A stretch of 64,000 bases of DNA from Candidatus Pacearchaeota archaeon (GCA_018303805.1 JAGVXL010000001.1:305528-369527); one strand, 5' to 3'; shown: positions 1-59,877, numbered from the stretch's first letter. Translations and numbers: made by a program. The notes: generated by a model not told the origin, from the sequence alone.

Positions 1-34
1 AGTGAAAAGTCCATCTGATGATGGAGGCAACCTG

Positions 35-99
35 ATTTCCTATGCCCCGAAAAGCCCGTGATGCTCGCTTCGGCGAGGATTGCCTGCTTTTCGCGAAAA
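35..99 (+). repeat. 65-nt structured element, copy 1 (inverted partner at 10335-10399)
   Basis: Matches the reverse complement of 10335-10399 with 2 mismatches (positions 42 and 96). The perfect core is 43-95. It folds as outer stem CGAAAAGC/GCTTTTCG, an 8x8 internal loop, and inner stem CTCGC/GCGAG capped by a TTCG tetraloop. Confidence 0.85.
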
Positions 100-130
100 G
101 AAACTCTAGGAAGGTAGAAAAACTATAATT

Positions 131-183
131 GCAAGTTAGCAGGTTCCCGCAAGGGTCTCTAGGTTCGATTCCTGGCGTCGGCG
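131..183 (+). tRNA. 3' portion of a tRNA gene or tRNA-derived att fragment (short GCAA-capped arm, T arm, 3' acceptor strand)
   Basis: T stem CTAGG (159-163), loop TTCGATT, and CCTGG (171-175). Then a 7-nt acceptor strand CGTCGGC, discriminator G, and a T6 run. No matching 5' acceptor strand (G-Y-Y-G-R-Y-G) occurs in 1-130, so the 5' part is missing, is outside the window, or is separated by a long intron. Confidence 0.4.
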
Positions 184-188
184 TCGAG

Positions 189-194
189 TTTTTT
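189..194 (+). terminator. oligo-T tract directly after the tRNA-like 3' end
   Basis: TTTTTT lies 5 nt after the discriminator base. Archaeal RNA polymerase terminates at T runs. Confidence 0.35.
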
Positions 195-240
195 CTAACA
201 AAAGCGAAACATTTAAAAAGTCAGTAAGACTAATCTTACT

Positions 241-510
241 ATGGCAGAAATAAGCATAACTAAAATAAGCTCAAAAGGGCAGATAGTGATTCCCAAAGAA
301 ATGAGAGAGAACTTGGAAGAAGGAGACAGGCTGGTTATCATAAAAAATGACAATCAGCTTATTCTGAAAAAGGTGGAAGATTTCGATAAAAACCTGAGAG
401 ATGATTTGGAATTTGCCAAGAGAACTGAAGAAGCATGGAAAAGGCATGACAGCTTGGACTTTAGAAGTCTGGACTCCAAAGCTTTCATTAAAGAACTCAG
501 AAAATGGTGA
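241..510 (+). CDS. AbrB/SpoVT-family antitoxin
   Basis: The N-terminal SSKGQIVIPKEMRENL..GDRLVI matches the swapped-hairpin AbrB/SpoVT motif. It overlaps the downstream toxin gene by 7 nt (ATGGTGA). Confidence 0.8.
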   Translation: MAEISITKISSKGQIVIPKEMRENLEEGDRLVIIKNDNQLILKKVEDFDKNLRDDLEFAKRTEEAWKRHDSLDFRSLDSKAFIKELRKW

Positions 511-749
511 TTGTGGACTATGACCCAGATTTCCAAAAGATTTTCAGCAAGCTTGACAAGGGTATTAAGATAAAGGTGGAAAAAGCCTTAACAAAAATAA
601 TAGAAAATCCTGAAATTGGGAAGCCTATGCGATATGCAAGAAAAGGAACAAGGGAAGTCTATATTCCCCCTTTTAGATTATCTTACGCATATCTCCCTAA
701 GGAAAATAAAATAATTATCCTAACTTGGTATCATAAGGACGAGCAATAG
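504..749 (+). CDS. RelE/ParE-superfamily toxin
   Basis: 81 aa with a RelE-like C-terminal half (REVYIPPFRLSYAYLPKENKIIILTWYHKDE). It is coupled to the AbrB gene. Confidence 0.7.
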   Translation: MVIVDYDPDFQKIFSKLDKGIKIKVEKALTKIIENPEIGKPMRYARKGTREVYIPPFRLSYAYLPKENKIIILTWYHKDEQ

Positions 750-830
750 TTTTCCAAAGCCCTGGAAATTACTAAATTCAGGCTAGAAGAATAAATTTGG
801 AAAAGAAAACACACAGAAAAATCCATGCCT

Positions 831-845
831 ATAAAATAAAAAACC
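831..845 (-). terminator. oligo-T tract after the 416-aa surface protein gene
   Basis: The minus strand reads GGTTTTTTATTTTAT immediately after the stop at 850, in a convergent gap with the RelE gene. Confidence 0.3.
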
Positions 846-849
846 AGCT

Positions 850-2100
850 CTACTTCTTTTTCCTGGCCAAAGCTATCACGATTATAGCCAGGATAACTAA
901 CCCAACAGCAATCCCCATCCACAGCAAGCTCTTTGCTGGCTTTGTGGGGGTTATAGGTGTTACAGGCTTCTCTTCTTCCTTGCAGGCATTCTCCACGCAT
1001 TCTTTTCCTGCCCCGCAAGCACAATCTGCAATGCAGCTTGAGCAGTTTTCATCATACTCACAAACCTTGTCCCCGCAGACAGCTTTCTTTTCAGCAGGAG
1101 GCACATAGCCCTTTTTCTGTGCAGTTACCGCAAAATAGCTTAACCCTGGAGATTCCCCATAGTAATAGTAATATGTATCATCTTCTTTGTATTTAGTAGT
1201 AGGCAAGTCCTGCCATGAGTCCCCAACCTTCCTTCTCAATTTTGTTGTGGCAGCATCATAATCATTGGTTATATACCAGGATTTCTCAACCTTAAAGCTG
1301 ATTTTTACAGAGGCAATCTGCTTGTCTTCAATCAAGCTCTTTGTTATCTGGAGGTATTTGTAAGTCCCGCCTTCATCTGAAGCGATAGCAATGCCTGCAG
1401 TGCCTGCGCTTGACTCTGCAACCTTTATTGCTGCATTATCAATCTGTTCTGCCGCCTTAATCTCTATGCTTGTAACCTTCAATGTGTCTTCCTTGCTGTA
1501 TCCTATCTCTTTTATTGAGCCAGCTGAAATTCCCCCTGTGTAAGATGTTTGGCTCTCGCCTGCTGCTGCAGGAACTCCACCGCCCCCACCTCCGCCGCCA
1601 CCACTTGTATCTGTCGGTGTTGGTGCAGTACAAGCACTTGCCTGGCACGCCCCAATTCCATTACCATGATATTCAGATGCCCCTGAACAGCAGTAACCCC
1701 CCGAGCATGCTTCAGAATAGGCGCAGACTGCGCTGTTTGCGAGCTGGGAGATTGTTAAATTCAATTGTGTGGATGCTGTAGCCCCACCAGAGAGAGTATA
1801 GGTATCATTAGCTGTGACATTATATATTGTAAAAATTAGAGGGTCTCCATTGTTTGCATCTATGGACAGCCAATAAGAATAATCTGGCAAGCCAAACCCG
1901 CAGTTAGGATTTCCAACAGTGCAGTTTGCTTTCATTACTCCATTTATATATGCTGCTACGAATGCTCCTGTTGTAGAAGTGTTAGAGCCTATTGCAACCT
2001 TGCCCCTAAATGATTGAAGGTTTGCTGCATTAACAAGAAAAAGGCTGAAAACTACCGAGATTAAAAAAAAATAAAAATTTATTGTTGGTTTGGTAGCCAT
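850..2100 (-). CDS. secreted, C-terminally membrane-anchored surface protein (PGF-pre-PGF-like domain, Cys-rich module, Gly9 run)
   Basis: The ATG at 2100 gives MATKPTINFYFFLISVVFSLFLVNA, a signal-like N-terminus; the track start at 2178 would overlap the giant gene. It contains a GGGGGGGGG run. The segment ...YYYYGESPGLSYFAVTA resembles the archaeal PGF-pre-PGF domain. It also has the Cys-rich CGDKVCEYDENCSSCIADCACG module. The C-terminal TM helix ends in RKKK. Confidence 0.75.
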   Translation of the reverse strand: MATKPTINFYFFLISVVFSLFLVNAANLQSFRGKVAIGSNTSTTGAFVAAYINGVMKANCTVGNPNCGFGLPDYSYWLSIDANNGDPLIFTIYNVTANDTYTLSGGATASTQLNLTISQLANSAVCAYSEACSGGYCCSGASEYHGNGIGACQASACTAPTPTDTSGGGGGGGGGVPAAAGESQTSYTGGISAGSIKEIGYSKEDTLKVTSIEIKAAEQIDNAAIKVAESSAGTAGIAIASDEGGTYKYLQITKSLIEDKQIASVKISFKVEKSWYITNDYDAATTKLRRKVGDSWQDLPTTKYKEDDTYYYYYGESPGLSYFAVTAQKKGYVPPAEKKAVCGDKVCEYDENCSSCIADCACGAGKECVENACKEEEKPVTPITPTKPAKSLLWMGIAVGLVILAIIVIALARKKK

Positions 2101-2158
2101 TTTAACATTTTTTGATTTTCTCTTAATTTTCCTTTCTCCCCCTACACTTTTTAAGAAT

Positions 2159-5100
2159 TTATACAATCTCAAGCGCATCTGTCCTATTCATATAAATTTC
2201 ATATGCCCTACTGTCAGTAGTTGAAGTAAAGTTAGCAAAAGTTCCGCCCACTCCTGGTTCGTAAGCAAGCCAAGAACCAGATGTGAAATTGTAAGCATAG
2301 AAGATTGTATAACTTCCCCTCATCGATGCAAGCACGTTGGTCACATTATAATTGCTTCCAAGTGAAGATACATTTTGCAATGCTGTAAATGAAAAGCTTG
2401 GACTGACCCACGTATTTTGAGAGTAGGTGTTGCCATAAGCCTCAGGCCTTCTTATTGTGTGTTTAGTCCAAGCAGTTATCTTTGTATAGTTGGCAACCAC
2501 ATTGCTCCCTGCCCTGTCCCTTATTGCATTTGCCTGAATTGTAAGTTTCATGTTTTCGTCTGCGTGCGGGTCTAATTCATTATAATCTGCTGCACCTAAT
2601 GATATGTTAATTGTTGTTGAAAGTGTGCTGCTATTAGATGACGTTACAACAGAGCCAGCCGTTATTCTGGTTAATATTGGAGTTCCAAGATAATCAGAAT
2701 AATTAACAGCAATCTTGCTCAAGTCAATTGAGCTTGGGTCCATTGTTTCATTGAATACAAGAGTCAAATTCTTGCTTATTGAGCTGTAATTCCAGCTTGT
2801 CAGGGCAGGAGCAGTGTTATCTATTGTTATACTCACATTTGCAGTTGCATTCTGGTTGTTTACAGTGTCATTTGCCCTTACTTGTATTGTGTATGTTCCA
2901 TCAATCAGGGTAGTCACATCATAGGTTACAGTGGCACTAATCATTGTTGTAAGTGTAAAGTTATCCCATACAGTTGTGTTGCCTATTCCTGATGTATTCA
3001 CAAACCTGTATTGCAATGTAGTGTTAGTAACATTCGTATAAGCATCAGTAGCAGTCACATTAATCAGTAGGGAGCTTCTATTGAAATCATCTGCTTCTGG
3101 CTGGTTTATTGTCACAGCAGGCACACTTGAATCAACAGTAAACTGCCTTGATGATGAAGTTCCTACATTTGAAGCTGAATCACTGCAATTGGCATACCAA
3201 TTGAAATTGCCCTGTGCAAGCCCTGAAATATTATACCTGTTGGCATTTGTGCCAGCAGTAATTCCTCCGACAGCCGTTGTTGTGTTTCTTGCTGAATTTA
3301 AGTATATGTCACATTCAAATACATTATCCAGATTGTCAGTAACACTCCAGTTTGCTATGAAAGTTGCAGAGGTTTGGTTTGTATTATTGGCAATTTGCAA
3401 TGTGACAGTAGGAGCAGTAGTATCAAGGGTTACTGTCCTGTTTGCAACACTGTTATTATTTCCTGCAGCATCAGTAACTGTTGCGCTGAAGCTGTATGTT
3501 TCATCACTCAATGTGACATTAGTGAAATTAGTGAAGTTTGTGTGGGTTCTTGTTGTATTAATGCTTGCATTAGAATAATATACATAGAATGTTATGCTTG
3601 CAAAGTTTGTTTCATTATAAGTTATATTTACAAATATGGAACTAATGCTTCTGTTTGACAAGTCAACTGGAGTTACAGCGGCGTAAGCAGCTACAGGGCT
3701 TGTGGTGTCAAGAGTTACGCTTCTGTTGGAAACAGTCCCATTATTGCCTGATGAATCAGTGACTGTCGCACTAAACAAGTAGGTTCCATCAGCCAAGCCA
3801 GTAAAGTTAGTGAAATTAGTGAAGTTTGTGTGGGTTCTTGCTGTATTCAAAGCGCCGTTTGAGTTGTATAGGTAGAATGTTAGGCTCTGGTAGTTTGTTT
3901 CATTGTATGTTATATTGACAAATATTGAGTTTATGCTTCTGTTTGATGCATCTGAAGGAGTTACTGCTGCGAATGCCACAACAGGATTTGTATTATCTAT
4001 TGTAAATGTATATGTAGCAGATTTGTTATTATTAGTAGCATCATCCCAACAACTGACATTAACAAACTGGTTATCGCCTGCTGATACTGTAACTAATGTT
4101 GAATTTAAAGTTCCTGAAGTTGCACTTGTTGTTGTGTTGGTGTTGCCTATTGTGATATTGCAACCTAATCCTCCTAAGGAAGTATCAATATTATCTGTAG
4201 CTGTCCAGCTTACATTCAGTGAAGTTGAGCTTTGGTTTGTATTGTTTGCAGGGGCTGAAACAGTTATTGTTGGCGCCTCGGTGTCAGAGAATATTTGTAT
4301 TCTGTATGATGTGTTTGTTCCATTGTTGTTTGCCCAGTCAGTCACGTTTATTCCAAGAGTATAGTTGCCTGGAGTAAATGTGCCTGGAACTGTAAAGCTT
4401 GTGTTGCATCCGCCTTTAGCTGAACTATACAAAATAGATGCCATCAAAGTGGCATTAAAGTATATTGTACAATTGCCAATTGCTGCAGTTGCTCCAGAGA
4501 CTCCTGAAGTTGCATCTGTAACATTAAAGGTTATTCCTACACTTGTGCCTACTGAAGCATTATTATAGCTTATGTTCTGTATTACTGGAGCAGTTTTATC
4601 TATAACTATTGTCATGAGAGGAGCAGTTCCTGAATTCTCTGCTGCATCACTTGTATTAGCATAAATTGTGTAAGTTCCATCTGAAAAATTGCTTGCATTT
4701 AATGTTCCATTGAAAAATGCTGAAGTGCCTGACTGGTCCAAACGAGACCATGTCCTGTAGTCACCTGTTGCCTGAGTTCCATTTAAATTGTAATAAGTGC
4801 TGCCTGTTTTTAATGAAGCCCAAACATCTGAAACATTCCAGTTAGTATCTGTTATATTCACGGTTACATTAACTGCCTCGGTAGTTGTCTGATTTGTGTT
4901 GTTTGCAGGGGCCCTTATCTGCAATACAGGAGCAGTTGTGTCAAGCGTGACAGTTCTGTTTGAAAGTGCAGTAGGATTGTTAGCAGTGTCATTTACTGTT
5001 GCGCTAAAGAGGTAAGTTCCGTCTGCCAAGCCTGTAAAGTTTGTGAAATTAGTAAAGTTTGTATGTGTTCTTATTGTGTTTATAGCCCCATTTGAATTAT

Positions 5101-8100
5101 ACAAGTAGAATATTATACCCTGGTAGTTTGTTTCATTATAGGTTATATTCACGAAGATTGAATTTATGCTTCTGTTTGATGCATCTGCAGGAGTTACTGC
5201 TGCGTATGAAACCACAGGAGCAGTAGTATCAAGCGTGACAGTTCTGTTTGAGACACTTCCATTATTACCAGCTGCATCGCTGACTGTTGCGCTGAAGCTG
5301 TATGTTCCCTCACTCAATGTGATGTTAGTGAAGTTTGTTGAGTTGGTGTATCTTCTTGTCTCGTTGATGCTTCCGTTTGAATAGTAAATATAGAAAGTTA
5401 TGCTTGCAAAGTTGGTTTCATTGTATGTTATGTTTGTGAAGATTGATGTTGCGCTTATATTTGAGGCATCTGCAGGAGTTGCAGATGCATATGATACGAC
5501 AGGAGCTGTTGCATCCACAGTTATTGTTCTGATTTGGCTTCTTCCTGTATTGCCTGCATAATCTGAACAGTTAACATAGAATGTATGCGTTGCTTGAGAC
5601 AAGGCAGAAGAAACTATAGTGCCATTCTGCAATGCATCTGCATTTGTATCGTTGTTAACAGTCCAGTTTGTTCCCTTGCTTGTTCCGCCATCTGCAAAAA
5701 GCTCACAGGTGAAGTTTGCTGCAAGGTTGTCAGAAACATTAAATGCAACTGTAGGTGTTGTTGAGGATATATTTGTCAAGTTGGCAGGGCTTGGGCTTAT
5801 TAAAGTGACACTTGGAGCAGTTGTATCAACTGTGAATGTGTTTGTTGAAGATGTTGTAGTGTAGACTGGACTCCAGCAAGTAACATTCCCATTATGTACT
5901 CCTTGGCTTAAGCCAGTAAAGTTATACCAGTTGTTATTTGTGCCGTTGGTTACTGCTATTGATGAGCTCACTGAATTATTTATTGCAATATTGTCAAGAG
6001 AAACATTACAATATAGAGTTGAATATGTAGAAGAGGTTGCAGTCCAGTTTACTTTTATAGTTGTGCTTGATGAGTTTGTTAAATTAGCAGGAGCATTCAA
6101 GGTAACAGTAGGAGCACCTGTCTCAACATAGAAAGTTCTTGTAGCACTTGTGTTTATATTCTTGACATCATCTATGCATGTAACATTCCAAGTATGAGTG
6201 CCATTTGATAAGCCCGCTGCTGAAACTGACAAATTCGCAACTGCTGTATTATTAGAAGCTTCAAAATTGCTTCTATTCACAACAGAATTTAAAGTTAAAT
6301 TACAGGTAAGACTTGTATCTTGTGAATCATTTGCAGTCCATACAAAGCTCATGTTTGTTACGCTTGTATTAGCAAAGGTATCAGGCGTACTCAAGGTTAT
6401 TAGTGGGGGTGTATTGTCTATATGCAATACAAGAGACTTGTTCTCGACAAGATTGCCACCCAAGTCCGAGGCATTAACATAAATTCTGTATTCGCCATCT
6501 GCAAAATTATTTGCGTTTAAAGTGTTATTGAAAAAGTTTGATGAGCCGCTTCTTACTAAATTTGTCCATGTTCTGTAGTCTCCTGTTGCTTGCACTCCTG
6601 CTAAAGTGTAGTAAGCAGTTGTATTTTTTAATGCAGCCCAGACATCCGAGTTATTTCTGTTTGTGTCTGTAATCTGAGCAGTTATGTTAACATCAGAAGC
6701 AGTTTGATTGGTGTTATTTGTTGAAGGCGCCCCTATTGTTATCACCAAAGCAATTAGGTCAATAGTAAAAGACCAGTTCGCTCTTGTCATTGAATTTGCA
6801 ACCATGTCCTTTGCATCAACATAAACTCTTACAACATCGCCATCGCTTAATGGCTCAGCGGTATAGCTGACTTGTATTCCATTTGGTATGTTCTTTCTTG
6901 TTGCATTAGTATAAGTAGTAACATTAACCCATGCACCGGCATTAACCTTAATCTGAAATTCTATTGAGTTGTTATCCACTTTGCTTGCTGTATCAGTTAT
7001 ATTAATATAGATAGTAGGTGTTTGGGTATTCGTGAAGGTTGCATTAGCAGGAGTCAAGTCAGAAGAGCTTGGGCCATTATTATCTATTGTTATGTTAATG
7101 CTTGAATTAGAATTAATATTTCCAGCCAAATCAACTGCTGTGAGATTGATTCTGTAACTTCCATCAGCAAAGTTGTTTGAGTTTATAGTTGCATTGTAGA
7201 AATCTCCTGATGATACCTTAAGCTTTGTGAAATTTCTGTAATCTCCGACTACAGCGGTAGCATCAAGATTGTAATGGTTAGTTGAATTAAACAAGGCAAC
7301 CCAAACAGCAGTATTGTTTATATTTGTGTCTACTACTTGCACAGTAAGGTTATCTGCTGCGCCTGTTAGATTAGAATTATTAGCAGGCACTGTTATATTT
7401 ATTATAGGAACTGTGTTGTCTGTTGTGTAAGTAAAAGCAGGAGCAGCTCTGCTGTTGTCTGCTGCATCCCAAGCTGTTACCCTCCAATAATATACTGTGT
7501 CTGCTCCAAGTGTTGTGCCAGTAACGCCTGTCTTGTTTGTGGCATTTGCATAAGTGCCGGTTGTGTTTACTAGGCTGCTGAAATCTGAGTTGTCATCTAT
7601 CTGCATTGTATAATTGACAAAATTTATCTCATTTGTGGATTCCCATTGCAAAGTAGGAGTTCTGTTTGTGCTTATTGTAGCATTTGTCGGCACAATAAGA
7701 TTAAATGCAGAGGGAACAGTTGTATCAAGCGTGACAGTTCTGTTTGAAAGTGCAGTAGGATTGTTTGCAGTATCATTTACTGTTGCGCTGAAGAGATATG
7801 TTCCATCAGCCAAGCCTGTGAAGTTTGTGAAATTAGTAAAGTTGGTGTGGGTTCTTATTGTATTAATAGCCCCATTTGAGTTGTAAAGATAGAATATTAT
7901 ACTTGCATAATTTGTTTCATTATAGGTTATATTCACGAAGATTGAATTTATGCTTCTGTTTGATGCATCTGAAGGAGTTACTGCTGCGTATGAAACCACA
8001 GGAGCTGTTGTGTCAAGCGTGACAGTTCTGTTTGAGACACTTCCATTATTACCAGCTGCATCGCTGACTGTTGCGCTGAAGCTGTATGTTCCCTCGCTCA

Positions 8101-10129
8101 ATGTGATGTTAGTGAAGTTTGTTGAATTTGTGTATCTTCTTGTCTCGTTGATGCTTCCGTTTGAATAGTAAATATAGAATGTTATGCTTGCAAAATTGGT
8201 TTCATTGTATGTTATGTTTGTGAAGATTGATGTTGCAGTTACATTTGAGGCATCTGCTGTTGTTGTTGCAGCATATGCTACAACAGGGGCTGTGTTATCT
8301 ATTGTTATCTTTCTTGTTGAGCTTGTGCCATTATTACTTGCAAAATCAGAGGCGTTGATGTAAAGAGTGTAAGTGGCATCTGCAAGATTATCGCTATTAA
8401 GAGGGAATGTAAAGGCAGTTGCATTTATCCTTGTCATGTTTGTCCAATTTCTGAAATCACCACCACCTATATAAGATATGTAAGTGCCATCAAGTTGGTA
8501 ATAAGAGCTGTTTGAGTGCTTCATTGCTCCATACACTGCTGAAACATTCTCATTCACAGTAACATTTATGTTATCTGCAGAGCCTGTCAAGTTTGTGTCT
8601 GCTGAAGGTGCTGTTATTCCAATAGTAGGGGCGGTGTTATCTGTTATATAGATAAAAGAGGAATTTGTTCTTGTGTTGCCTGCTGCATCTGTTGCAGTTA
8701 CACGCCACCAGAATGTGCCATCACTTGCAAGCGTACTCATTGTAACAGTGCCTGTAGTTCTATCTGTAACTTCCCTAGTTTCATTAATGCTCGTGAAAGC
8801 AGAATCTGTAGCTATTTGAATAGTATAGTTGATGAAGTTTGCTTCTGTTACCGTTTCCCATGTTAGTGTTGGGGTTCTTATAGTAGAATTTGTATTGTTT
8901 GCAGGTGTGTTGAGTGTGAATGCTGTTGGAGCAGTGTTATCTATCGTTATCTTGCGAGTAGAATTCTCAAGCATATTTCCTGCCAAGTCAGTTGCGTTGA
9001 TGTAAAGAGTGTAAGTTCCATCTTTAAAAATATTTGAATTTAAGGTAGCGTTAAAAAAGGATGTTGAACCTGATTGATATAATCTCGTCCAGGTTTGATA
9101 ACTTCCTGTGAGTTTTGTGCCAGAATTATCAAGTGCATAATAACCTGTTGAGTTCTTTATAGCAGCATAAATATCTGATGTATTAACACTTGTGGGCCAT
9201 GTGTCATTAACCTGCACTGTTATGTTGTCTGATGCTCCTGTTAAGTTTGTATCTGCTGAAGGCGAAATAACACTGACATTTGGCGATGCAGTATCAGCTG
9301 TTATATTCCATTTTGCTTCAGTCATTGCATTTGCATTTGAGGAATTATCTCTTGCATTAACTCTTATAGTGAAATTATCTCCGCTTGCTAAACCTGTTAT
9401 GTATGTATAGCTTACTTGAAAGCCATTCGTGATTGCAGTGATAGTTTCAATAACATTTGCAAATGGCGCGGCATTCTTGGAAACCTCCAAGACAATAGTG
9501 CTTGTGTTAACACCCATGCCCCCATCTGTTATGTTAATGTAAACAGTAGGCGTAGTATCAGAAGTGAAATTGTTTGGGCCAGGCAGTTGGTTAGAGAAAG
9601 TAGGTACAATCGTATCGTTTACAGTCATTGTCTGATTAAAGGATTCTATGGTCCCATTGTCGTACTTTATTGTAACATTTATGCCATAAATTCCTTCAAC
9701 TGAACTATTTATTCCAATCCAGAAACTTCTGTTATTAATTGAGGTGCCGTTAATCAAACCGAATGTATTATTGATCCAGTTTAATGTATTACCATAATAA
9801 GAAAAATTAGCAACACCTGTTATCCCGCTTACTAATGGTGAAGAGCCATTTGAACTTGCATTGAATCCAAATCCAGTCGGCAGTGTTATATTGAACTGGG
9901 TAATGTTAACGGCTGCTTGGGTATTGTTAACTGTAAAATTTATTACATTATAAGTTAAATTAAACGGCTCTATTGTTGTTACATCTGCACTGGCTTGGAA
10001 TACAGCAGCAAGAATAAGATAAACAGAAAAAATAGTCATGGCAAGCAAAGCCATGAAAAAAATTGTCTTGTGCTTTCTCAACGCAGCATACTTGCTTTTC
10101 AAGAAAGATTCAAGTGAATAGGCATGCAT
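2159..10129 (-). CDS. giant (2656 aa) secreted surface protein or adhesin built from repeated Ig-like/FN3-like modules, extremely rich in N-glycosylation sequons
   Basis: An uninterrupted 7.97-kb ORF with an N-terminal signal/TM (IFFMALLAMTIFSVYLILAAVFQASA). Module boundaries recur as I/LDNTAP and LDTTAP. There are about 20 N-x-S/T sequons in the first ~215 residues and a similar density throughout. No C-terminal TM helix. Confidence 0.9.
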   Translation of the reverse strand: MHAYSLESFLKSKYAALRKHKTIFFMALLAMTIFSVYLILAAVFQASADVTTIEPFNLTYNVINFTVNNTQAAVNITQFNITLPTGFGFNASSNGSSPLVSGITGVANFSYYGNTLNWINNTFGLINGTSINNRSFWIGINSSVEGIYGINVTIKYDNGTIESFNQTMTVNDTIVPTFSNQLPGPNNFTSDTTPTVYINITDGGMGVNTSTIVLEVSKNAAPFANVIETITAITNGFQVSYTYITGLASGDNFTIRVNARDNSSNANAMTEAKWNITADTASPNVSVISPSADTNLTGASDNITVQVNDTWPTSVNTSDIYAAIKNSTGYYALDNSGTKLTGSYQTWTRLYQSGSTSFFNATLNSNIFKDGTYTLYINATDLAGNMLENSTRKITIDNTAPTAFTLNTPANNTNSTIRTPTLTWETVTEANFINYTIQIATDSAFTSINETREVTDRTTGTVTMSTLASDGTFWWRVTATDAAGNTRTNSSFIYITDNTAPTIGITAPSADTNLTGSADNINVTVNENVSAVYGAMKHSNSSYYQLDGTYISYIGGGDFRNWTNMTRINATAFTFPLNSDNLADATYTLYINASDFASNNGTSSTRKITIDNTAPVVAYAATTTADASNVTATSIFTNITYNETNFASITFYIYYSNGSINETRRYTNSTNFTNITLSEGTYSFSATVSDAAGNNGSVSNRTVTLDTTAPVVSYAAVTPSDASNRSINSIFVNITYNETNYASIIFYLYNSNGAINTIRTHTNFTNFTNFTGLADGTYLFSATVNDTANNPTALSNRTVTLDTTVPSAFNLIVPTNATISTNRTPTLQWESTNEINFVNYTMQIDDNSDFSSLVNTTGTYANATNKTGVTGTTLGADTVYYWRVTAWDAADNSRAAPAFTYTTDNTVPIINITVPANNSNLTGAADNLTVQVVDTNINNTAVWVALFNSTNHYNLDATAVVGDYRNFTKLKVSSGDFYNATINSNNFADGSYRINLTAVDLAGNINSNSSINITIDNNGPSSSDLTPANATFTNTQTPTIYINITDTASKVDNNSIEFQIKVNAGAWVNVTTYTNATRKNIPNGIQVSYTAEPLSDGDVVRVYVDAKDMVANSMTRANWSFTIDLIALVITIGAPSTNNTNQTASDVNITAQITDTNRNNSDVWAALKNTTAYYTLAGVQATGDYRTWTNLVRSGSSNFFNNTLNANNFADGEYRIYVNASDLGGNLVENKSLVLHIDNTPPLITLSTPDTFANTSVTNMSFVWTANDSQDTSLTCNLTLNSVVNRSNFEASNNTAVANLSVSAAGLSNGTHTWNVTCIDDVKNINTSATRTFYVETGAPTVTLNAPANLTNSSSTTIKVNWTATSSTYSTLYCNVSLDNIAINNSVSSSIAVTNGTNNNWYNFTGLSQGVHNGNVTCWSPVYTTTSSTNTFTVDTTAPSVTLISPSPANLTNISSTTPTVAFNVSDNLAANFTCELFADGGTSKGTNWTVNNDTNADALQNGTIVSSALSQATHTFYVNCSDYAGNTGRSQIRTITVDATAPVVSYASATPADASNISATSIFTNITYNETNFASITFYIYYSNGSINETRRYTNSTNFTNITLSEGTYSFSATVSDAAGNNGSVSNRTVTLDTTAPVVSYAAVTPADASNRSINSIFVNITYNETNYQGIIFYLYNSNGAINTIRTHTNFTNFTNFTGLADGTYLFSATVNDTANNPTALSNRTVTLDTTAPVLQIRAPANNTNQTTTEAVNVTVNITDTNWNVSDVWASLKTGSTYYNLNGTQATGDYRTWSRLDQSGTSAFFNGTLNASNFSDGTYTIYANTSDAAENSGTAPLMTIVIDKTAPVIQNISYNNASVGTSVGITFNVTDATSGVSGATAAIGNCTIYFNATLMASILYSSAKGGCNTSFTVPGTFTPGNYTLGINVTDWANNNGTNTSYRIQIFSDTEAPTITVSAPANNTNQSSTSLNVSWTATDNIDTSLGGLGCNITIGNTNTTTSATSGTLNSTLVTVSAGDNQFVNVSCWDDATNNNKSATYTFTIDNTNPVVAFAAVTPSDASNRSINSIFVNITYNETNYQSLTFYLYNSNGALNTARTHTNFTNFTNFTGLADGTYLFSATVTDSSGNNGTVSNRSVTLDTTSPVAAYAAVTPVDLSNRSISSIFVNITYNETNFASITFYVYYSNASINTTRTHTNFTNFTNVTLSDETYSFSATVTDAAGNNNSVANRTVTLDTTAPTVTLQIANNTNQTSATFIANWSVTDNLDNVFECDIYLNSARNTTTAVGGITAGTNANRYNISGLAQGNFNWYANCSDSASNVGTSSSRQFTVDSSVPAVTINQPEADDFNRSSLLINVTATDAYTNVTNTTLQYRFVNTSGIGNTTVWDNFTLTTMISATVTYDVTTLIDGTYTIQVRANDTVNNQNATANVSITIDNTAPALTSWNYSSISKNLTLVFNETMDPSSIDLSKIAVNYSDYLGTPILTRITAGSVVTSSNSSTLSTTINISLGAADYNELDPHADENMKLTIQANAIRDRAGSNVVANYTKITAWTKHTIRRPEAYGNTYSQNTWVSPSFSFTALQNVSSLGSNYNVTNVLASMRGSYTIFYAYNFTSGSWLAYEPGVGGTFANFTSTTDSRAYEIYMNRTDALEIV
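4933..5473 (-). repeat. 541-bp intragenic repeat, copy B (two Ig-like modules)
   Basis: Aligns without indels to 7717-8257 at a constant offset of 2784. I counted about 35 mismatches by eye, roughly 93 percent identity. More diverged copies lie at about 3400-3960. Confidence 0.85.
7717..8257 (-). repeat. 541-bp intragenic repeat, copy A
   Basis: See 4933-5473. Both copies encode ...TAPVVSYAAVTP.DASNRSINSIFVNITYNETNY..IIFYLYNSNGAINTIRTHTNFTNFTNFTGLADGTYLFSATVNDTANNPTALSNRTVTLDTT. Confidence 0.85.
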
Positions 10130-10334
10130 TCTAATTTTACCTCTTTAACTCCTCTTTTAATATAAAAATTATAATACTTTATGCATTTTGGGGTTTTTAA
10201 ATCTTTTTCTTTTTTCAGCCATTCTGGAAAAATATGGGAAATTAATTCTCCGACGATAAACAAAAAGATTAGTACTGTAAAAAGGATATAATCCAAAAAT
10301 CAAAAAAGAGAGATTTTAGCCTTTAGCCTTTTGG

Positions 10335-10399
10335 TTTCCGCGAAAAGCAGGCAATCCTCGCCGAAGCGAGCATCACGGGCTTTTCGGGGCACAGGAAAT
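10335..10399 (-). repeat. 65-nt structured element, copy 2 (inverted partner of 35-99)
   Basis: Reverse complement of 35-99 with 2 mismatches. On the minus strand it lies upstream of the giant gene and its promoter region. Confidence 0.85.
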
Positions 10400-10471
10400 T
10401 TCTGATTTCCTTGTGTTAGGACTTCAAAATCTTTCAGATTTTGATAGTGCTCAGGAATTAAAGATTCCTGA
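10393..10471. other. cluster of three perfect small hairpins
   Basis: AGGAAAT-ttctg-ATTTCCT (10393-10411). TCAAAATCT-ttc-AGATTTTGA (10424-10444). TCAGGAAT-taaag-ATTCCTGA (10451-10471). Confidence 0.6.
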
Positions 10472-10592
10472 CATGTTTAGAAAGAAAGATAAAAAAAGAG
10501 ATTTTTGCCATTGAATAAGAATATTAACCCTATTCAGGGAAACAGGCAAAATAAAGCTTGGCTTGGATAAATCTCCCAGCTTCTGGCATCTC

Positions 10593-10853
10593 TCACTTTC
10601 TTTTCAGCTGCACAAATAGAATTGCGATTATCGCCAGAATAACAATAATCGCGCCTGCGCCGGCAATTAAGAATATCTTGCTTATCTTTGGTTTCTCAGT
10701 TGTTATGACTGGTTTTTCAGCAGGCACCTCAGCAGGCTTCTCTGCAGGGGTTTCCTCTTCTGCTGGCGTTTCAACAGCAGGAGCAACATAAACCAAAGAT
10801 TTTACAGTTATGTCTGCCTTCATCGTATTGAGATTCACGCTGTTAAGCATCAA
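10593..10853 (-). CDS. duplicated C-terminal anchor cassette of the upstream 1182-aa protein (small anchored protein, remnant, or read-through extension)
   Basis: The 86-aa ORF LMLNSVNLNTMKADITVKSLVYVAPAVETP...TM...KRK parallels the last ~95 residues of the 10878-14426 product. DNA homology runs up to the TGA at 10878, and the ORF is in the same frame as the upstream gene. Confidence 0.4.
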   Translation of the reverse strand: MMLNSVNLNTMKADITVKSLVYVAPAVETPAEEETPAEKPAEVPAEKPVITTEKPKISKIFLIAGAGAIIVILAIIAILFVQLKRK

Positions 10854-10877
10854 TGATAGTTCATTAGATATTCTTTT

Positions 10878-13800
10878 TCACTTCTTCTTCAACTGCCTTG
10901 CCAATACTGCCAGAATTATAACTATAACAATAACAGTGATTATTCCTGCCCACAAAACTGCCTTGCTTATTCTTGGCTTCTCCACGGCTGCTGTTGGAGT
11001 TTCTGCAGCCCCTTCAGGAGGTGTTGTAGCGGGCTCAGATTGATTTCCTGCTGGCGTTTCAACAGCAGGAGCAACGTAAACTAATGACTTAACAGTTATA
11101 TTTGCCTTCATTGTGTTAAGATTGATGCTGTTAAGCATCAGTGAAATCTCATTTATTCCATCAGCATCTATATCAACAAGCTCTTCCTTGCCAACTTGCA
11201 ACAACTTTGTTAATACTACTGACCTTATCTGCACAGAGGCAGAACTTGCAGTCAAGCCAAGCAACTTTAGAGTGTGAGTTTCATTTTCTATCTTGAATTT
11301 AATGCTTTCACTAATACCTATTTCCTTGCTTGCACTTGTTAATTCATTCTCGCTTACATCATAAATTACTGTTGTGGTTGTTCCTCCGCCTCCTGCACTT
11401 GGTGTTGTTGTGCTTGTCGTCGTGGTGGTGGTAGTAGTCGCGCTTCCTGAAATCTTGTTTGCTGTTGTGGAGAAGTGAGGAATTGTAAGCCAGAAATAGC
11501 CTGCATGTCCTGTGGCATTATCATTAGTCACATTCATGTAGCATGACTGTATTGTCGGAGTTGCAGCTGCGGTTGTATTGCCGCATATCATGCCAGGAGT
11601 GCTGAACCATGAACTATTGAAATCAGAATAGTCTGAAGGTATTTGTGAAGTGCCAGTGCCGTTTGCAGTTGCATTCCATATTACATTGTTGTCATTGTCA
11701 TAGAGGAATGAAAGGTTTACATAGTAACTCCAGTTTTCATTTATAGTTGTGTTATAAGGAATTCCTATTATCACATAGTCATAGATATTAGGAGCAAGTG
11801 AGCCGAATTTCCATACCTGAGCCAACGCGCTTGAGCTTGAGCTTGCGCTTGAGGCATTATCATTCATTACAGCGTCAGGAGGTCCAGATGCAATCAAGTC
11901 AACATTAATAAAATAAAGTGTAATGTTGTTTGTAGTTTTCATTCGCAGATTGCTCTTGCCTGCCATCATTGCCTGCATAGGGTCAAAATCTGCTGTTTTT
12001 GAGTCTCCTATTTGGCATGTTGCTGCAGGAAGATAAACATTGCATGCAGTGCTGTATCTCATGAATTTCATCTCCATCCTGCTTCCTGTCATCTTGCTGT
12101 CTGAGAAACTGCCATTTTCCAGGATCATCATTGGCCTGAATGAATATAATGTTATGTTCGTCCTGTTTGCACCGAGATTAATCTTCTGCTCTTTAGGAGC
12201 AAACTGGCTGCCGAATACTCTTACCTTTACTTCCTGTGTGTTGTTAAGTATTGACATATTAAACTTGCCATTTGTCAATGATTCAATTATGTAATGCATT
12301 GTCCCGAAGACGTTGTTGTTTTTTACAATCACCTCAACATGCGCATCCTGTGGAGCAGTGCCGTTGCTGTCCATTATCGCAACTTCTATCTTGCTGGTAT
12401 TTACTACTCCACCCATAGAATATTTGCCGAGCAGCCTTACAAGAGTAAGATTAAAAATCTGGGCACTGTTGCTCATTGTTATGTTCTGGAATATTGCAGA
12501 GTATTCTCCTTCTGCCCCTAAAGCACTTGAATTTTCAGCATATGCCTCAATCAGCCAGCTTATTCCGCCTGCAGCACCCATTAATGTAAGATTAAATGCT
12601 CCAAGTGTGCAGCCTCTCGCACCATTCAAGCCAGAGCCACTTCTCCCAAGAATGAACGAGCTTGTGTCATCTCCATCAAAATCTGAAACCTCTCCTTTCA
12701 TAGGAGGCACAAAACCTTCCCATGGAATCATTTTTGCAATTATATCCTTAACATCAACAGGGGTTGTATTCCCCAATATATTTACACATCCTGTCAAGTT
12801 ATAACTCCCAAAAGCCAAACTCTTGTTTATTGTAACAAGATGAGGGGTTGAATTAACCTCTGATGAATTCTGATATGATAGAATATTATTGCTTGTGATG
12901 CTTATGCTCATTGGAGGGGATGGACAATCAGATGCATTCATATAGCCAGGGCCTGCACAAATAGCTGGAGTCCCAGTCATATTAAAATTAAATGGGTCTC
13001 TCAAGAATATAACTGTATAGTTCCTGTTTGATGGCACAATCACATCAGCAGTCGCTGTGTCTCCTTGGATGTTGCTTTCAATAGGAAATCCTAATGACTG
13101 GTCCATAATTATATAGCCAAACCTCATTGCTCTTGTATCGTTAGTAATATAAGGGGGAGCACCTGTTCCATTTAAAGTAATATTATTATTTGCAAAAAGC
13201 CTTAATGTTGTTGCATTCTGCAAGTAGATTGTTCCGCCCTGCATATTGAACACAAGAGGCTCGCGAGGCAGAGGAGGCAAACTTGGGCCTATTTCTGTTA
13301 CGAGTCCTGCAGAATTATTAAGAAAAACCTTTAATTTATAGATTGTCATCTGCTGTCCCCCAGAGCCATTGTTCTGTATGTCTGTCAGGTTGAACTGCCC
13401 GTTTGCTGATGTTAGGACAGACCTCAAAAATCTTTCTGTTGGCGGCCCTTGCTGTCCCATTATAAACTCATACATGCTTACATTTGCTCCTGAAACATTA
13501 TCGTAAGTGGAATTTTTTACCCAGCCCGAAATAGAGAAGGCATTTACAGTTACTGTGTTGTTAATGCTGGAATAGTTTATATTGTTAGATGTATCTCTGA
13601 CTTGACAATACCATGTATATGTTCCTGGCATTTGAATTGTTTGTGTGAAGTTTGTCTGGTTGTAGGTGCCTGAAACATTAGATGAATTCACGAGGCGCGA
13701 CTGCGGCGTAAATGGACCTCCAGATATAACTTCCAGCATCCACAAATCAATTCTTAGCAATGCTACATTGTCAGAAGCATTGCAGCTGAAATTGACAGTT

Positions 13801-16717: not shown

Positions 16718-17545
16718 ATGAACATGGATAAAAAAAAGAGGTTTGAAAAGATATGCAATGACATTAAACAGGTTAGAATTCAGGGAGCAAGAAACATTGC
16801 CAAAGCCGCTTTGTATGCATACTCTTTGTTTCCTGATAAAAAACATAAACGGATTTTGATGAATGCAAGGCAAACTGAACCGATGCTTTTTAATGTTCTC
16901 GATAAATTTGAAAAAATTGGCTATAAAAATATATTAAAACACTTTAATGAAAGCCAGGACAGAATAAATCAAAATGTTTTAAAGCTAATCAAAAATAACG
17001 ACATTATTTTTACCCATTGCCATTCTACAAATGTTGTTAATGCTCTGATATACGCCAAGAAAAATGGGAGAAAATTTCAAGTCTATAATACAGAAACACG
17101 CCCTTTATATCAGGGAAGAAAAACAGCGAAAGAGCTAGAAAAGGCAGGGGTAAAGGTAAAGATGTTTATTGACTCTGCCATAGCGATTGCAATAGAAAAA
17201 GAAAATAAAAAAGACAAGATTTATGCCAACAAGATATTCTTAGGAGCAGATGCTCTGCTTGACAAGGGGATTATAAATAAGATTGGTTCAGGCATTATTG
17301 CTGAATTAGCTTATGGCCATAAAATTCCCCTCTATATAATAGCTGATTCATGGAAATATACAAATAAAAATATTCCAATAGAAAACAGAAAGTTAAATGA
17401 AGTTTGGAGCAGGGCTCCAAAACACATAATAATAAAAAATCCCGCATTCGAATTTGTGGAAGCAAGACACATCAGGGCAATAGTCTCTGAGCTGGGCATC
17501 CTTAGTCAGGGGCAGTTTGTGAAAAAAGCAAAGATTGTTTTGTAG
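16718..17545 (+). CDS. e2b2: ribose-1,5-bisphosphate isomerase (eIF-2B alpha/beta/delta-like family)
   Basis: IF-2B family signature GADALLDKGIINKIGSG and the THCHST segment. It lies immediately upstream of RuBisCO, as in the archaeal AMP pathway. Confidence 0.75.
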   Translation: MNMDKKKRFEKICNDIKQVRIQGARNIAKAALYAYSLFPDKKHKRILMNARQTEPMLFNVLDKFEKIGYKNILKHFNESQDRINQNVLKLIKNNDIIFTHCHSTNVVNALIYAKKNGRKFQVYNTETRPLYQGRKTAKELEKAGVKVKMFIDSAIAIAIEKENKKDKIYANKIFLGADALLDKGIINKIGSGIIAELAYGHKIPLYIIADSWKYTNKNIPIENRKLNEVWSRAPKHIIIKNPAFEFVEARHIRAIVSELGILSQGQFVKKAKIVL

Positions 17546-17590
17546 GATAAAATCAGAAAAATTTATATACAAATAAATTCTCTTCTTGAT

Positions 17591-18754
17591 ATGGCTTACA
17601 AAGATTATGTAAATCTAAAATTCAAGCCAGATAAAAAGGGTTTGATATGCACTTATTATATTGAGCCATTGCATCTTTCCTTGCAGGAAACAGCAGGGGG
17701 GGTTGCTGCTGAGAGCAGCACAGGAACGTGGATTGATGTCAAGACAAAACAAAATTATGTGAAAAAGCTTGACGCAACTGTCTTCTCGATAAAAAAACAA
17801 CAGCAAGGTGCTGAAATAAAGATTTACTATCCTTCCGGGCTTTTTGAAAAAGGAAATATGCCCAATATTCTAAGCAGCATAGCTGGAAACATCTTCGGCA
17901 TGGAGGAAATAAAAAACATAAAACTCCTTGATATTAGCTTTCCAAATGAAATTGCAAGAAGTTTTGCAGGCCCGAAATACGGCATTCAGGGAATAAGGAA
18001 GATTATGAAAGTTCACAACAGGCCATTGCTCGGGACAATAATAAAGCCCAAGCTTGGCTTGAAAACAGGGCATCATGCGAAAGTTGCATATGAATCCTGG
18101 CTGGGTGGATGTGATGTGGTAAAGGATGATGAAAATCTCTCAAGCCAGAAATTCAACAGATTTGAGGATAGATTAAAAGAAACACTAAAAATGAAGGAAC
18201 GGGCTGAAAAAGAAACAGGGAGCAAAAAGGCATATCTTGTGAATGTTACAGCAGAGACAAAAGAAATGCTAAGAAGAGCGAAGCTTGCTGAAAATTATGG
18301 AAATGAATATATAATGATTGATGTTTTAACTGCCGGCTTCTCTGCCTTGCAGACATTAAGGCAAGAGAATTTTGATTTGATAATTCATGCCCATCGCGCA
18401 GGGCATGCGGCAATGACAAAAAATCACAAGCATGGAATAGGCATGAATGTCCTTGTGAAAATGCTGAGGCTTGTCGGGGTTGACCAGCTGCATGTTGGAG
18501 CTGCAGTTGGGAAGATGTTTGAAACTTCGGCAGAAGTAAAAGAAAACATTCTTGCAGCAAAAGAAAAAACTTTCAATTTAAAACCAGTCATGCCTGTTGC
18601 ATCTGGCGGCTTGGCAATAAAAGATATTCCAGCTGTTGTCAAAATTTTTGGAAAGGATGTTGTTATCCAGATGGGCGGGGGAATTCATTCACATCCGCAA
18701 GGCACTTTTGCAGGGGCAAGGGAAGCGAGAGAAGCGATTGAGAATGCAGTGTAA
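17591..18754 (+). CDS. rbcL: RuBisCO large subunit, form III-like, short (387 aa)
   Basis: Catalytic motifs are present: GTIIKPKLGL, VVKDDENL (the carbamylated Lys context), HAHRAGHAA, LHVGAAVGK, PVASGG and MGGGIHSHPQG. Confidence 0.9.
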   Translation: MAYKDYVNLKFKPDKKGLICTYYIEPLHLSLQETAGGVAAESSTGTWIDVKTKQNYVKKLDATVFSIKKQQQGAEIKIYYPSGLFEKGNMPNILSSIAGNIFGMEEIKNIKLLDISFPNEIARSFAGPKYGIQGIRKIMKVHNRPLLGTIIKPKLGLKTGHHAKVAYESWLGGCDVVKDDENLSSQKFNRFEDRLKETLKMKERAEKETGSKKAYLVNVTAETKEMLRRAKLAENYGNEYIMIDVLTAGFSALQTLRQENFDLIIHAHRAGHAAMTKNHKHGIGMNVLVKMLRLVGVDQLHVGAAVGKMFETSAEVKENILAAKEKTFNLKPVMPVASGGLAIKDIPAVVKIFGKDVVIQMGGGIHSHPQGTFAGAREAREAIENAV

Positions 18755-25396: not shown

Positions 25397-25489
25397 TTTT
25401 TATTTTTAATAGGAGTTCCAAAGAACCTTGGTTCCCAAGAAAATCCTCTGGATTTTCTGGGCCCGAAGATCTTTCAGATTTTCGTGGCT
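25397..25489 (-). promoter_or_regulatory. structured 93-nt spacer between uS8 and uL6 (candidate attenuator, processing site or autoregulatory site)
   Basis: Elsewhere this operon is spaced by only -4 to +10 nt. Hairpins here: CCCAAGAAAATCC-tct-GGATTTTCTGGG (25434-25461, one bulge), CGAAGATCT-ttc-AGATTTTCG (25464-25484, one G-U pair), and the palindrome GAACC-TT-GGTTC. Confidence 0.45.
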
Positions 25490-59337: not shown

Positions 59338-59877
59338 TTATTTTTCATCTATTATTAGTTTTTCCATCTCTCTTGCAAATTCCTTTGCTCTTTGCAACGA
59401 GGTTTTTGCTTTGGATTTCTTCTCAAATTCAATAGTTTTATATTGAATTAATCCTCTCTTGCTTCTCTCAAAATCAAAGGACTCTATTATTTTATCGGCC
59501 TTTATTCCAGCTAGATTTAATGCTTCCTCTTTTGTTTCTTCATATTCTTCAATAAGGGATGTTCTTAGTTTTTTTCTTGCATAAACAATTAAGGCGTCTG
59601 AAGCCACTTTATGAACTATTTTATCCCCTACTTTATAGCCCAACTTTAATAGAATCGCGTTTGCATAATAGAACATAGCATAATATGAACAGACGATTGT
59701 CCATAACTCTGAGGTATCTTTCCGATGAACCTCCTCTGCAACTCGCAAACTTTCTTTTGCATTCCTCAAAAGAATATTTATAACATTTTTGTCTGGAGCG
59801 GTTTTTTTCAATAAGCATTCTGCTAAGTATGACTTTACGTTAGATTCTGCTTCTTTTATTCTTTTTTCATTCAGCAT
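59338..59877 (-). CDS. HEPN-like protein (putative partner of the upstream nucleotidyltransferase)
   Basis: An all-helical 179-aa protein. It has R-x5-H (RVAEEVH) and ERSKRGLIQY segments. It overlaps the MNT gene by 11 nt. Confidence 0.45.
   Translation of the reverse strand: MLNEKRIKEAESNVKSYLAECLLKKTAPDKNVINILLRNAKESLRVAEEVHRKDTSELWTIVCSYYAMFYYANAILLKLGYKVGDKIVHKVASDALIVYARKKLRTSLIEEYEETKEEALNLAGIKADKIIESFDFERSKRGLIQYKTIEFEKKSKAKTSLQRAKEFAREMEKLIIDEK

Follow-up and report, generated by a model that had tools for sequence, protein, structure and literature searches.

We describe here a 65-nt inverted repeat in a 64,000-nt stretch of the genome of a Candidatus Pacearchaeota archaeon (GCA_018303805.1, JAGVXL010000001.1:305528-369527; the whole stretch is called the window, and positions are counted from its first letter). 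The two arms of this repeat, at 35-99 and 10335-10399, are probably copies of a lineage-specific, extended variant of a modular, palindromic and non-autonomous repeat that resembles the REP/BIME (repetitive extragenic palindromes) of bacteria. The intron of a tRNA-Ser(UGA) gene, 170 nt long, contains the whole of copy 1; copy 2 is found in a spacer next to the start of a gene for a giant surface protein, and shorter members of the same family are found in the same genome and in related contigs.

The inverted repeat and the intron around copy 1

The inverted repeat of the earlier note was borne out by alignment. The two arms are complementary at 63 of 65 positions (97%), and the mismatches at window positions 42 and 96 leave a perfect 53-nt core at 43-95; within the window there are two exact matches to a 46-nt core, and 100 shuffles give an expectation of 0.00. 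Both copies fold into hairpins with energies of -25.1 and -28.4 kcal/mol (z ~ -4.4; 0 of 200 shuffles were equally stable), and the opposite strands fold more weakly, at -21.1 and -23.2 kcal/mol. The favored strand is the plus strand for copy 1 and the minus strand for copy 2, with a gain of 4-5 kcal/mol, because two of the pairs are G.U. The hairpin proposed earlier stands for both copies, but most of the 8x8 internal loop that was part of it is predicted to form pairs (G-C, U.G, G.U, A-U and U-A), so that only a G.G mismatch and a 2x2 mismatch, which flank these pairs, stay open. The loss of similarity in the flanks likewise holds on the right, where it occurs within a few nucleotides and Smith-Waterman alignment shows nothing, but on the left similarity may restart past a 32-nt indel with ACA(G)AGGAAATCA. 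This resumption is marginal alone, since 28 of 500 shuffles reach its Smith-Waterman score, and is corroborated by the other members of the family.

The 10 kb upstream of the window were recovered from public assemblies through the MazE protein (window 241-510), which gives a locus, L001, whose coordinates are those of the window plus 9760. An archaeal L1-L10-P1 ribosomal-protein operon lies directly upstream of the window in this locus. ARAGORN, with introns allowed, places a tRNA-Ser(UGA) gene at L001 9692-9943; its intron is 170 nt long and interrupts the gene at the canonical 37/38 position, and the 5' exon lies 33-68 nt ahead of the window start. The gene is missed by ARAGORN with default settings and by Rfam, from which it is hidden by the length of its intron. 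Removal of the intron gives an 82-nt tRNA-Ser(UGA) cloverleaf, and the spliced construct is again called Ser(tga) by ARAGORN. What had been read as a tRNA-like fragment after copy 1 is indeed tRNA sequence, although it is not a fragment: it is the 3' exon, followed by a T6 run, and copy 1 is intronic. This could not be seen from the window, which starts inside the intron. The features around copy 1 are as follows.

1 to 137, plus strand: 3' 137 nt of the 170-nt tRNA-Ser(UGA) intron, which starts 33 nt before the window (L001 9728-9897)
1 to 40, plus strand: hairpin H1 of copy 1, with a 32-nt loop insert (1-32), the 3' arm TGATTTCC (33-40) and the 5' arm GGAAATCA in the 8 nt that precede the window
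35 to 99, plus strand: copy 1 of the 65-nt repeat, in which an ATG linker joins the 3' arm of H1 to the extended H4 hairpin
45 to 96, plus strand: H4 hairpin of copy 1, with basal arms CCCCGAAAAGC (45-55) and GCTTTTCGCGA (86-96) and a C.C mismatch at stem position 3
56 to 85, plus strand: apical insert of copy 1, 30 nt, GC-rich and UUCG-capped, CCGTGATGCTCGCTTCGGCGAGGATTGCCT
138 to 183, plus strand: tRNA-Ser(UGA) 3' exon, comprising position 38, the anticodon-stem 3' strand, the long variable arm, the T arm and the acceptor 3' strand

The window begins exactly at the loop insert of H1, which hid the 5' arm of this hairpin from the earlier reading. The 32-nt insert has no second copy within the window, and neither has the tRNA 3' sequence TGGCGTCGGCGTCGAG, i.e., there is no att-type direct repeat. 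The intron boundary lies between ...CUUGAG and AGCAGG.... Inspection of the splice sites by hand revealed a central helix, CUUG/CAAG, with a 3' bulge UUA, a possible 5' bulge AGU and an outer helix of only 1-2 bp. The unconstrained minimum free energy fold does not display a bulge-helix-bulge, and the same splice-site pattern is found in the relative L032, in which the tRNA-Ser(UGA) exons are identical to those of this genome. The splice site so predicted is a relaxed bulge-helix-bulge (BHL).

A family of two-hairpin units

Relatives were obtained as syntenic DPANN contigs through homologues of L10, the nearest named one being "Nanoarchaeota archaeon," and were sampled around L10 and the gene for a 442-amino-acid (aa) protein only. 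A covariance model, R1, was built from the two window copies, and its hits were then read directly as sequence. R1 found shorter relatives of the repeat in the same genome and in related contigs. In this genome the match is in the L1-L10 spacer (L001 8145-8185, 29 bits). Elsewhere R1 matched the L1 leader of L032 (229-266, 34 bits), the spacer downstream of P1 in L049 (4065-4102, 41 bits) and, inverted, the pre-tRNA-Ser leader of L050 (1874-1912, 29.5 bits). No hairpin of the family was found by R1 within 20 kb around the window end.

The L1-L10 spacer of this genome holds four tandem hairpins, AGGAAATC-tgct-GATTTCCT, GGAAAATC-tata-GATTTTCC, CCCCAAAAACC-gaaa-GGTTTTTGCGG and CCCCGAAAATC-ttggaa-GATTTTCGCGG. 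The unit in the L1 leader of L032 reads CAGAGGAAATC-aaaa-GATTTCCT-ATG-CCCCGAAAATC-ttt-GATTTTCGCGG, and the same unit stands downstream of P1 in L049 with CCCCGAAAAGC-aca-GCTTTTCGCGG as its H4. L050 has an inverted H4 in its pre-tRNA-Ser leader, and a hairpin like the third of the spacer (H3) comes after it, which makes an inverted plus direct pair. From these sites a basic unit of ~50 nt emerges, consisting of two hairpins, CAGAGGAAATC-loop-GATTTCCT and CCCCGAAAAKC-loop-GMTTTTCGCGG, joined by an ATG or GTG linker. The repeat of the window differs from this unit in that a GC-rich insert of 30 nt replaces the 3-6-nt H4 loop, an insert common only to the two window copies, and the copy in the intron carries the additional 32-nt insert in the loop of H1. 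Within the window, a diverged pair of hairpins resembles the family.

25434 to 25487, no strand assigned: diverged family-like hairpin pair, CCCAAGAAAATCC..GGATTTTCTGGG and CCCGAAGATC..GATTTTCGTGG, in the S8-L6 spacer

These two hairpins have AAAATC/GATTTT cores with GC clamps and seem antisense to their genes.

Eight basal hairpins could be compared. Compensatory changes occur at two places in the stem, position 5 (G-C/A-U) and position 10 (G-C/U-A/C-G). Position 3 of the stem is a C.C mismatch without exception, and the loop measures 3, 4, 6 or 30 nt. The copy in the intron and the non-orthologous copy in the L049 spacer are identical at 50 of 50 positions in three blocks. The L10 proteins of the genomes concerned are only 67-71% identical, and so close a match between the copies suggests that the hairpin may be read by a trans-acting factor.

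These features raise the question of whether the hairpin is a cis-acting functional RNA motif, a protein-binding or processing site for mRNA stability, operon processing or translational coupling that would be retained at any site where it serves a purpose, among them pre-tRNA and a non-coding transcript beside the surface-protein gene. Across the same genomes the module is conserved like the tRNA exons, and its compensatory changes and invariant mismatch are what a functional motif would show. The stem is constant while the loop ranges from 3 to 30 nt, which suggests reading as a hairpin and not as duplex DNA, and the two apical G.U pairs arise only on the locally transcribed strand, where the fold is better. 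Moreover, 10-14 nt separate the end of the module from the Shine-Dalgarno sequence that follows it, which is that of L1 in L032 and that of L10 in this genome. However, its positions differ between relatives with 86%-identical L10, the copy of L050 is inverted and the S8-L6 pair seems antisense, the copy in the intron and the copy ~200 nt upstream of a promoter share no obvious cis role, and no Rfam family corresponds to it. Function is the leading alternative to a repeat, but as the main explanation we find it rather unlikely on these sequence comparisons, and it is compatible with an origin as a repeat, because bacterial REPs are both. The narrower idea that copies in the L1 and L10 leaders mimic the L1/L10 operator was rejected as the main explanation on account of the variable position between 86%-identical relatives and of the copies in a tRNA leader and an intron.

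With its conserved AUG or GUG, the linker begins short open reading frames (ORFs) of 11-31 codons, which read MPRK or MPQK at their start (window 42-128; L032 236-271; L001 8124-8204). They end within the Shine-Dalgarno sequence of L1 in L032 and at the TAAAATG of L10 in this genome, which could be translational coupling or coincidence. A small peptide made from the linker AUG (MPRK...) was rejected, as the variation among copies keeps the pairing and not the peptide.

The structured module in two copies that the earlier note listed first among its options is thus a real hairpin and belongs to a conserved family, but it lacks a K-turn, C/D or H/ACA signature. An identity as a guide RNA or L7Ae-binding module could be entertained on account of the UGAUG and GA dinucleotides in the middle of the hairpin, of C/D-like boxes just upstream (window 14-34) that give a weak match to Rfam sR2, and of a stem-pocket-stem outline that is superficially H/ACA-like. 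Closer reading leaves this identity with almost no probability. No register, by hand, puts tandem G.A/A.G pairs beside a 3-nt bulge, so the K-turn-like GA dinucleotides noted earlier fit no canonical K-turn. The stem is followed by AAA (CGAAAA or CGGAAA) instead of an ACA box; there is no K-loop, the upper stem has 5 bp and a UUCG cap, and the "pocket" is predicted to be paired. The sR2 match reaches 14.5 bits against a gathering threshold of 42, falls outside the repeat and comes without C'/D' boxes. In addition, the shorter members of the family are without the entire apical part, which is therefore not a defining feature of the element. The boxes themselves, CUGAUGA at 14-20 and CUGA at 31-34, stand 10 nt apart within the 32-nt loop insert of H1.

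Rfam searches with the window, both repeat regions and the L1-tRNA region gave no credible match at gathering and E-value thresholds. A scan of a collection of genome contigs with the apical-insert pattern CCGTGATGC-N12-GGATTGCCT returned 24 matches, all bacterial and stemless and thus due to chance. A scan of metagenome contigs with the apical-insert 21-mer GATGCTCGCTTCGGCGAGGAT returned 10 bacterial-looking contigs of 50-72% G+C without hairpin arms, again chance matches, from a collection that does not hold this organism (the JGI contig L002, which has the exact sequence, was not returned) and is silent on copy number. Scans of viral contigs with the extended and basal patterns gave chance matches only.

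Proposed gain of the repeat, copy 2 and the bracketed segment

The sites of the unit are not orthologous. L032 has a unit before L1 and none between L1 and L10, and in this genome the arrangement is reversed. The L1 leaders of L064 and L032 provide an empty and a filled site: the former runs from ...ggttc directly into tgatgtaggagg, and the latter carries a 51-nt module at exactly that point. The difference is a precise 51-nt indel, with no duplication of at least 2 nt, and the module does not end in a pair of inverted repeats. The introns of tRNA-Ser in L032, L033 and L034 are without the module. The spacer upstream of the giant surface-protein gene, which measures 206 nt in L047 and 280 nt in L048, is also without it in both. 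Both window copies are therefore lineage specific. Since they share the derived 30-nt apical insert, they are a recent duplicate or conversion product. The features around copy 2 are the following.

10130 to 10592, minus strand: spacer with copy 2, 463 nt
10302 to 10307, minus strand: T6 run, 27 nt downstream of copy 2, read from the sequence
10335 to 10399, minus strand: copy 2 of the 65-nt repeat, with H4 at 10338-10389 and its apical insert at 10349-10378
10394 to 10410, minus strand: short H1 hairpin of copy 2, GGAAAT-CAGAA-ATTTCC, with AACACAA ahead
10424 to 10471, minus strand: two more 8-bp hairpins, TCAAAATC/GATTTTGA and TCAGGAAT/ATTCCTGA

The spacer is bordered by an 86-aa ORF on one side and by the start of the gene for a 2656-aa surface protein on the other. 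Four hairpins follow one another here (the two 8-bp ones, H1 and H4), with copy 2 at the end of the row, and resemble the cluster in the L1-L10 spacer. The T6 run downstream of copy 2 is a possible archaeal termination signal. No tRNA was found around copy 2 with ARAGORN -i and a T-loop regular expression.

The 86-aa ORF (window 10593-10865) duplicates the 3' end of the gene for a 1182-aa surface protein (11048-11153) with 85% identity over 106 nt and is probably a rearrangement scar. The 2656-aa protein (window 2159-10129 region) is made of diverged 285-300-nt Ig-like repeats of families D1-D3, and a homologue search with its N-terminal 400 aa gave no match. It is paired with the 442-aa protein, whose homologues are annotated PGF-pre-PGF.

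We infer mobility as the cause of this distribution, a mechanism that acts on DNA, and neutrality within the intron. In this clade of DPANN archaea the unit has its niches in transcribed but untranslated DNA: mRNA leaders, the spacers of ribosomal-protein operons, the leader of a pre-tRNA and the intron of a tRNA. It would be gained and lost there as a discrete block, because its positions differ between close relatives. Copying may occur at the DNA level and preferentially into existing hairpin loops, either through a hairpin-recognizing activity or through gene conversion between basal hairpins already present. One variant would have gained the 30-nt insert in the H4 loop and come to stand at two sites 10.2 kb apart. 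The copy in the intron would be tolerated as harmless because it is spliced out with the intron, and the inverted orientation of the copies and the genes bracketed between them would be incidental.

Several observations weigh against an origin as a repeat of this kind. Copies were counted in ~84 kb of the genome, which hold two extended copies, one cluster of four hairpins and one diverged pair, and all but the diverged pair lie within 12 kb of the L1 operon. The window and the 10 kb ahead of it have ~60 ORFs, among which no transposase, RAYT, integrase, recombinase or Y1 protein is found. The defining marks of REP-RAYT systems and of miniature inverted-repeat transposable elements (MITEs) are missing, as the clean empty site has no target-site duplication and the ends of the hairpins have no GTAG/CGTC tag. 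The tight conservation and the invariant mismatch would also fit a functional, protein-binding RNA. Finally, the sampling of relatives around two genes biases where copies appear.

In a reading close to the earlier note's third option, the arms would be the terminal inverted repeats of a transposon or integrated element, 10.4 kb in length, that carries a toxin-antitoxin pair and surface-protein genes. The region is a hot spot of integration in relatives, with duplicates of the tRNA-Ser 3' end in L034 and L064, and the genes for the 442-aa and 2656-aa proteins are absent in L034 between ParE and the orthologue of the 1182-aa gene, which there follows ParE directly (51% identity, full length). 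However, L032 and L034, which have no arms, show synteny for the tRNA 3' exon and for the MazE-ParE pair, both of them parts of the bracketed segment. One terminus would fall in the middle of the intron, with both flanks orthologous to the intron of L032, the ~60 ORFs include no transposase, and the module occurs singly elsewhere. A 10-kb element is thus unsupported, and we give it a negligible probability; it is the small module itself that behaves like an inserted, mobile repeat.

The earlier note had also considered a recombination substrate that flips the 10.2-kb segment. Such a flip could serve as a phase switch for the surface-protein genes or as a step toward a split tRNA-Ser. Near-identity over 65 bp in inverted orientation suffices for homologous recombination. 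The inverted state would put the T6 run after the 5' half of the tRNA, with a junction reading 5' exon-hairpin-GGAAACCAAAAGG, and would leave both halves with a self-complementary hairpin. However, the contigs reached by way of MazE (15 read) or of the 1182-aa gene (6 read), which stem from several samples, are all alike in their arrangement, and no recombinase, integrase or transposase domain was found among the ~60 ORFs. Inversion would moreover split this copy of an essential-type tRNA gene and leave the promoter of the 2656-aa gene unmoved relative to its ORF. The proposal finds no support in these data and appears extremely improbable.

Transcription of copy 2 from the plus strand would yield an RNA of ~175 nt antisense to the module of the intron (63/65), which might modulate splicing or act as a sponge for the intron. 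The complementarity of the arms is a fact, an A-rich box, AAAAATCAAAAAAG (10295-10308), that is like the promoter box of tRNA-Ser, AAAAATTAAAAAGC, lies ~25 nt upstream of copy 2 on the plus strand, and a T5 run follows at ~10502. The box is weakly specific in this AT-rich genome, where it has five matches in the window, mostly off gene starts, and as a promoter for transcription of copy 2 it was rejected as too unspecific. The hairpin, in turn, folds better on the minus strand, and other members of the family have no such pairing partner. An antisense role is therefore very unlikely.

Among known systems, the repeat family is closest to the REP/BIME of bacteria, which have been reported in archaea too by RepRanger (PMC12306157). 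It shares with them short imperfect palindromes of 20-65 nt, a location in transcribed intergenic spacers as single copies or tandem clusters, compensatory stem changes with conserved mismatches, and a presence that varies between close relatives. The clustering is seen in the four tandem hairpins of the L1-L10 spacer, the four at copy 2, and the inverted plus direct pair of L050. In terms of copy number, the ~84 kb hold two extended copies, four basal hairpins and two diverged ones. Unlike REP/BIME, the family has no GTAG/CGTC tag and no RAYT or IS200/IS605-type gene among the ~60 ORFs, and it has a two-hairpin unit with nested loop insertions and copies in a tRNA intron and a pre-tRNA leader. 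It differs from MITEs in having neither terminal inverted repeats nor target-site duplications.

Possible growth of the tRNA-Ser intron

In L032 (L10 86-87% identical), L033 and L034, a tRNA-Ser(UGA) gene likewise follows the P1 gene. Its intron measures 51 nt in L032, 56 nt in L033, ~92 nt in L034 and 170 nt in this genome, and the tRNA-Ser genes of L049, L050 and L064 have none. A four-way alignment places ~115 nt of the 170-nt intron, including copy 1, as an insertion in the loop of an ancestral intron hairpin, GTTTCTTTTT/AAAAGAAAC. An insert of 36 nt stands at nearly the same point in the intron of L034 and is independent of this one.

Other segments of these introns also recur outside tRNA genes. 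The L033 intron opens with 33 nt that recur at 100% identity in the L1-L10 spacer of L033 itself, the insert of the L034 intron shares 22 identical nt with the L1-L10 spacer of L050, and the L032 intron matches the spacer downstream of P1 in L050 over 27 nt with 93% identity. In a neighbor-joining tree of L10, intronless lineages separate this genome and L032 from L033 and L034, so that at least two gains or at least two losses of the intron are needed. It is conceivable, and we put it forward only tentatively, that the tRNA-Ser(UGA) intron of this clade was assembled from hairpin modules of mRNA leaders and operon spacers, and that insertion of REP-like palindromic modules into hairpin loops, including the anticodon loop, is a DNA-level route by which archaeal tRNA introns arise and grow.

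A second repeat family was noticed in these contigs, with a CUCUCUU/AAGAGAG-type hairpin and GACCUUGGAGAGAAAC-like 16-mers (L033 4537-4626). Its members stand in tandem ahead of start codons and make up the body of tRNA-Ser introns as well (L032, L033, L034 and window 97-137). Extra fragments of the 5' or 3' end of tRNA-Ser lie near the gene in L034 (2781-2795 and ~3690-3705) and L064 (~3296-3307), and in L034 a MazE-ParE pair stands between the tRNA and the duplicate of its 3' end. These fragments look like integration scars, which would make tRNA-Ser a hot spot for inserted DNA.

The introns recall the tRNA intron "transposition" of the Thermoproteales (Fujishima et al. 2010, via PMC4090602), the mechanism of which is called still unknown in that review. 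As in the cases described there, near-identical blocks are found in an archaeal tRNA intron and at another locus, which implies copying of intron sequence at the DNA level. The partners in those cases are other tRNA introns, whereas here they are mRNA leaders and operon spacers, and only a module within the intron is common, not the whole intron. In Caldiarchaeum subterraneum, a tRNA gene is disrupted by a 1.8-kb mobile element that encodes a recombinase (PMC3293823). There, too, the content of the intron varies at one tRNA locus (at the level of the population or of relatives), tRNA fragments lie nearby (here in L034 and L064), and mobile DNA is linked to intron gain. The inserts found here, in contrast, are non-coding hairpins of 50-120 nt, and no recombinase is present among the ~60 ORFs.

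The euryarchaeal tRNA-Trp has an intron-encoded box C/D RNA. It offers the parallel of a long tRNA intron at the canonical position with an extra structured module, whereas here the C/D signature is lacking and the module is not confined to tRNA genes. Rickettsia palindromic elements are small palindromic inserts that lie in frame in protein genes. They share with the present repeat the placement of small palindromes within functional genes where they are tolerated, although tolerance here would come through RNA splicing.

Additional genes of the window and its surroundings are recorded here. A Trm112-like Zn-ribbon ORF (CPxC...CPxC) between P1 and tRNA-Ser is intact in L033, L034, L049, L050 and L064 and seems degenerate or truncated in this genome (L001 ~9530-9570, ~200-230 nt before the window start). 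Genes of nucleotide salvage at 16718-18754 and 35534-37009 encode form III RuBisCO, an IF-2B-family protein (ribose-1,5-bisphosphate isomerase-like) and an AMP-phosphorylase-like protein; this set is the nucleotide-salvage, CO2-fixing pathway typical of DPANN archaea. A pair of HEPN and nucleotidyltransferase (MNT-like) genes at 59338-60439 is the second toxin-antitoxin-type module of the window.

The gain of introns by archaeal tRNA genes is an open question, and the contigs studied here hold a graded natural series in one gene of close relatives (0, 51, 56, ~92 and 170 nt). The modules common to these introns and to nearby spacers make the growth, and possibly the birth, of an intron testable. 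They also document a conserved family of hairpin repeats in DPANN archaea, whose non-coding DNA is little studied. Moreover, tRNAs with long introns, such as the tRNA-Ser(UGA) described here, may contribute to the tRNAs that are called "missing" in DPANN genomes.

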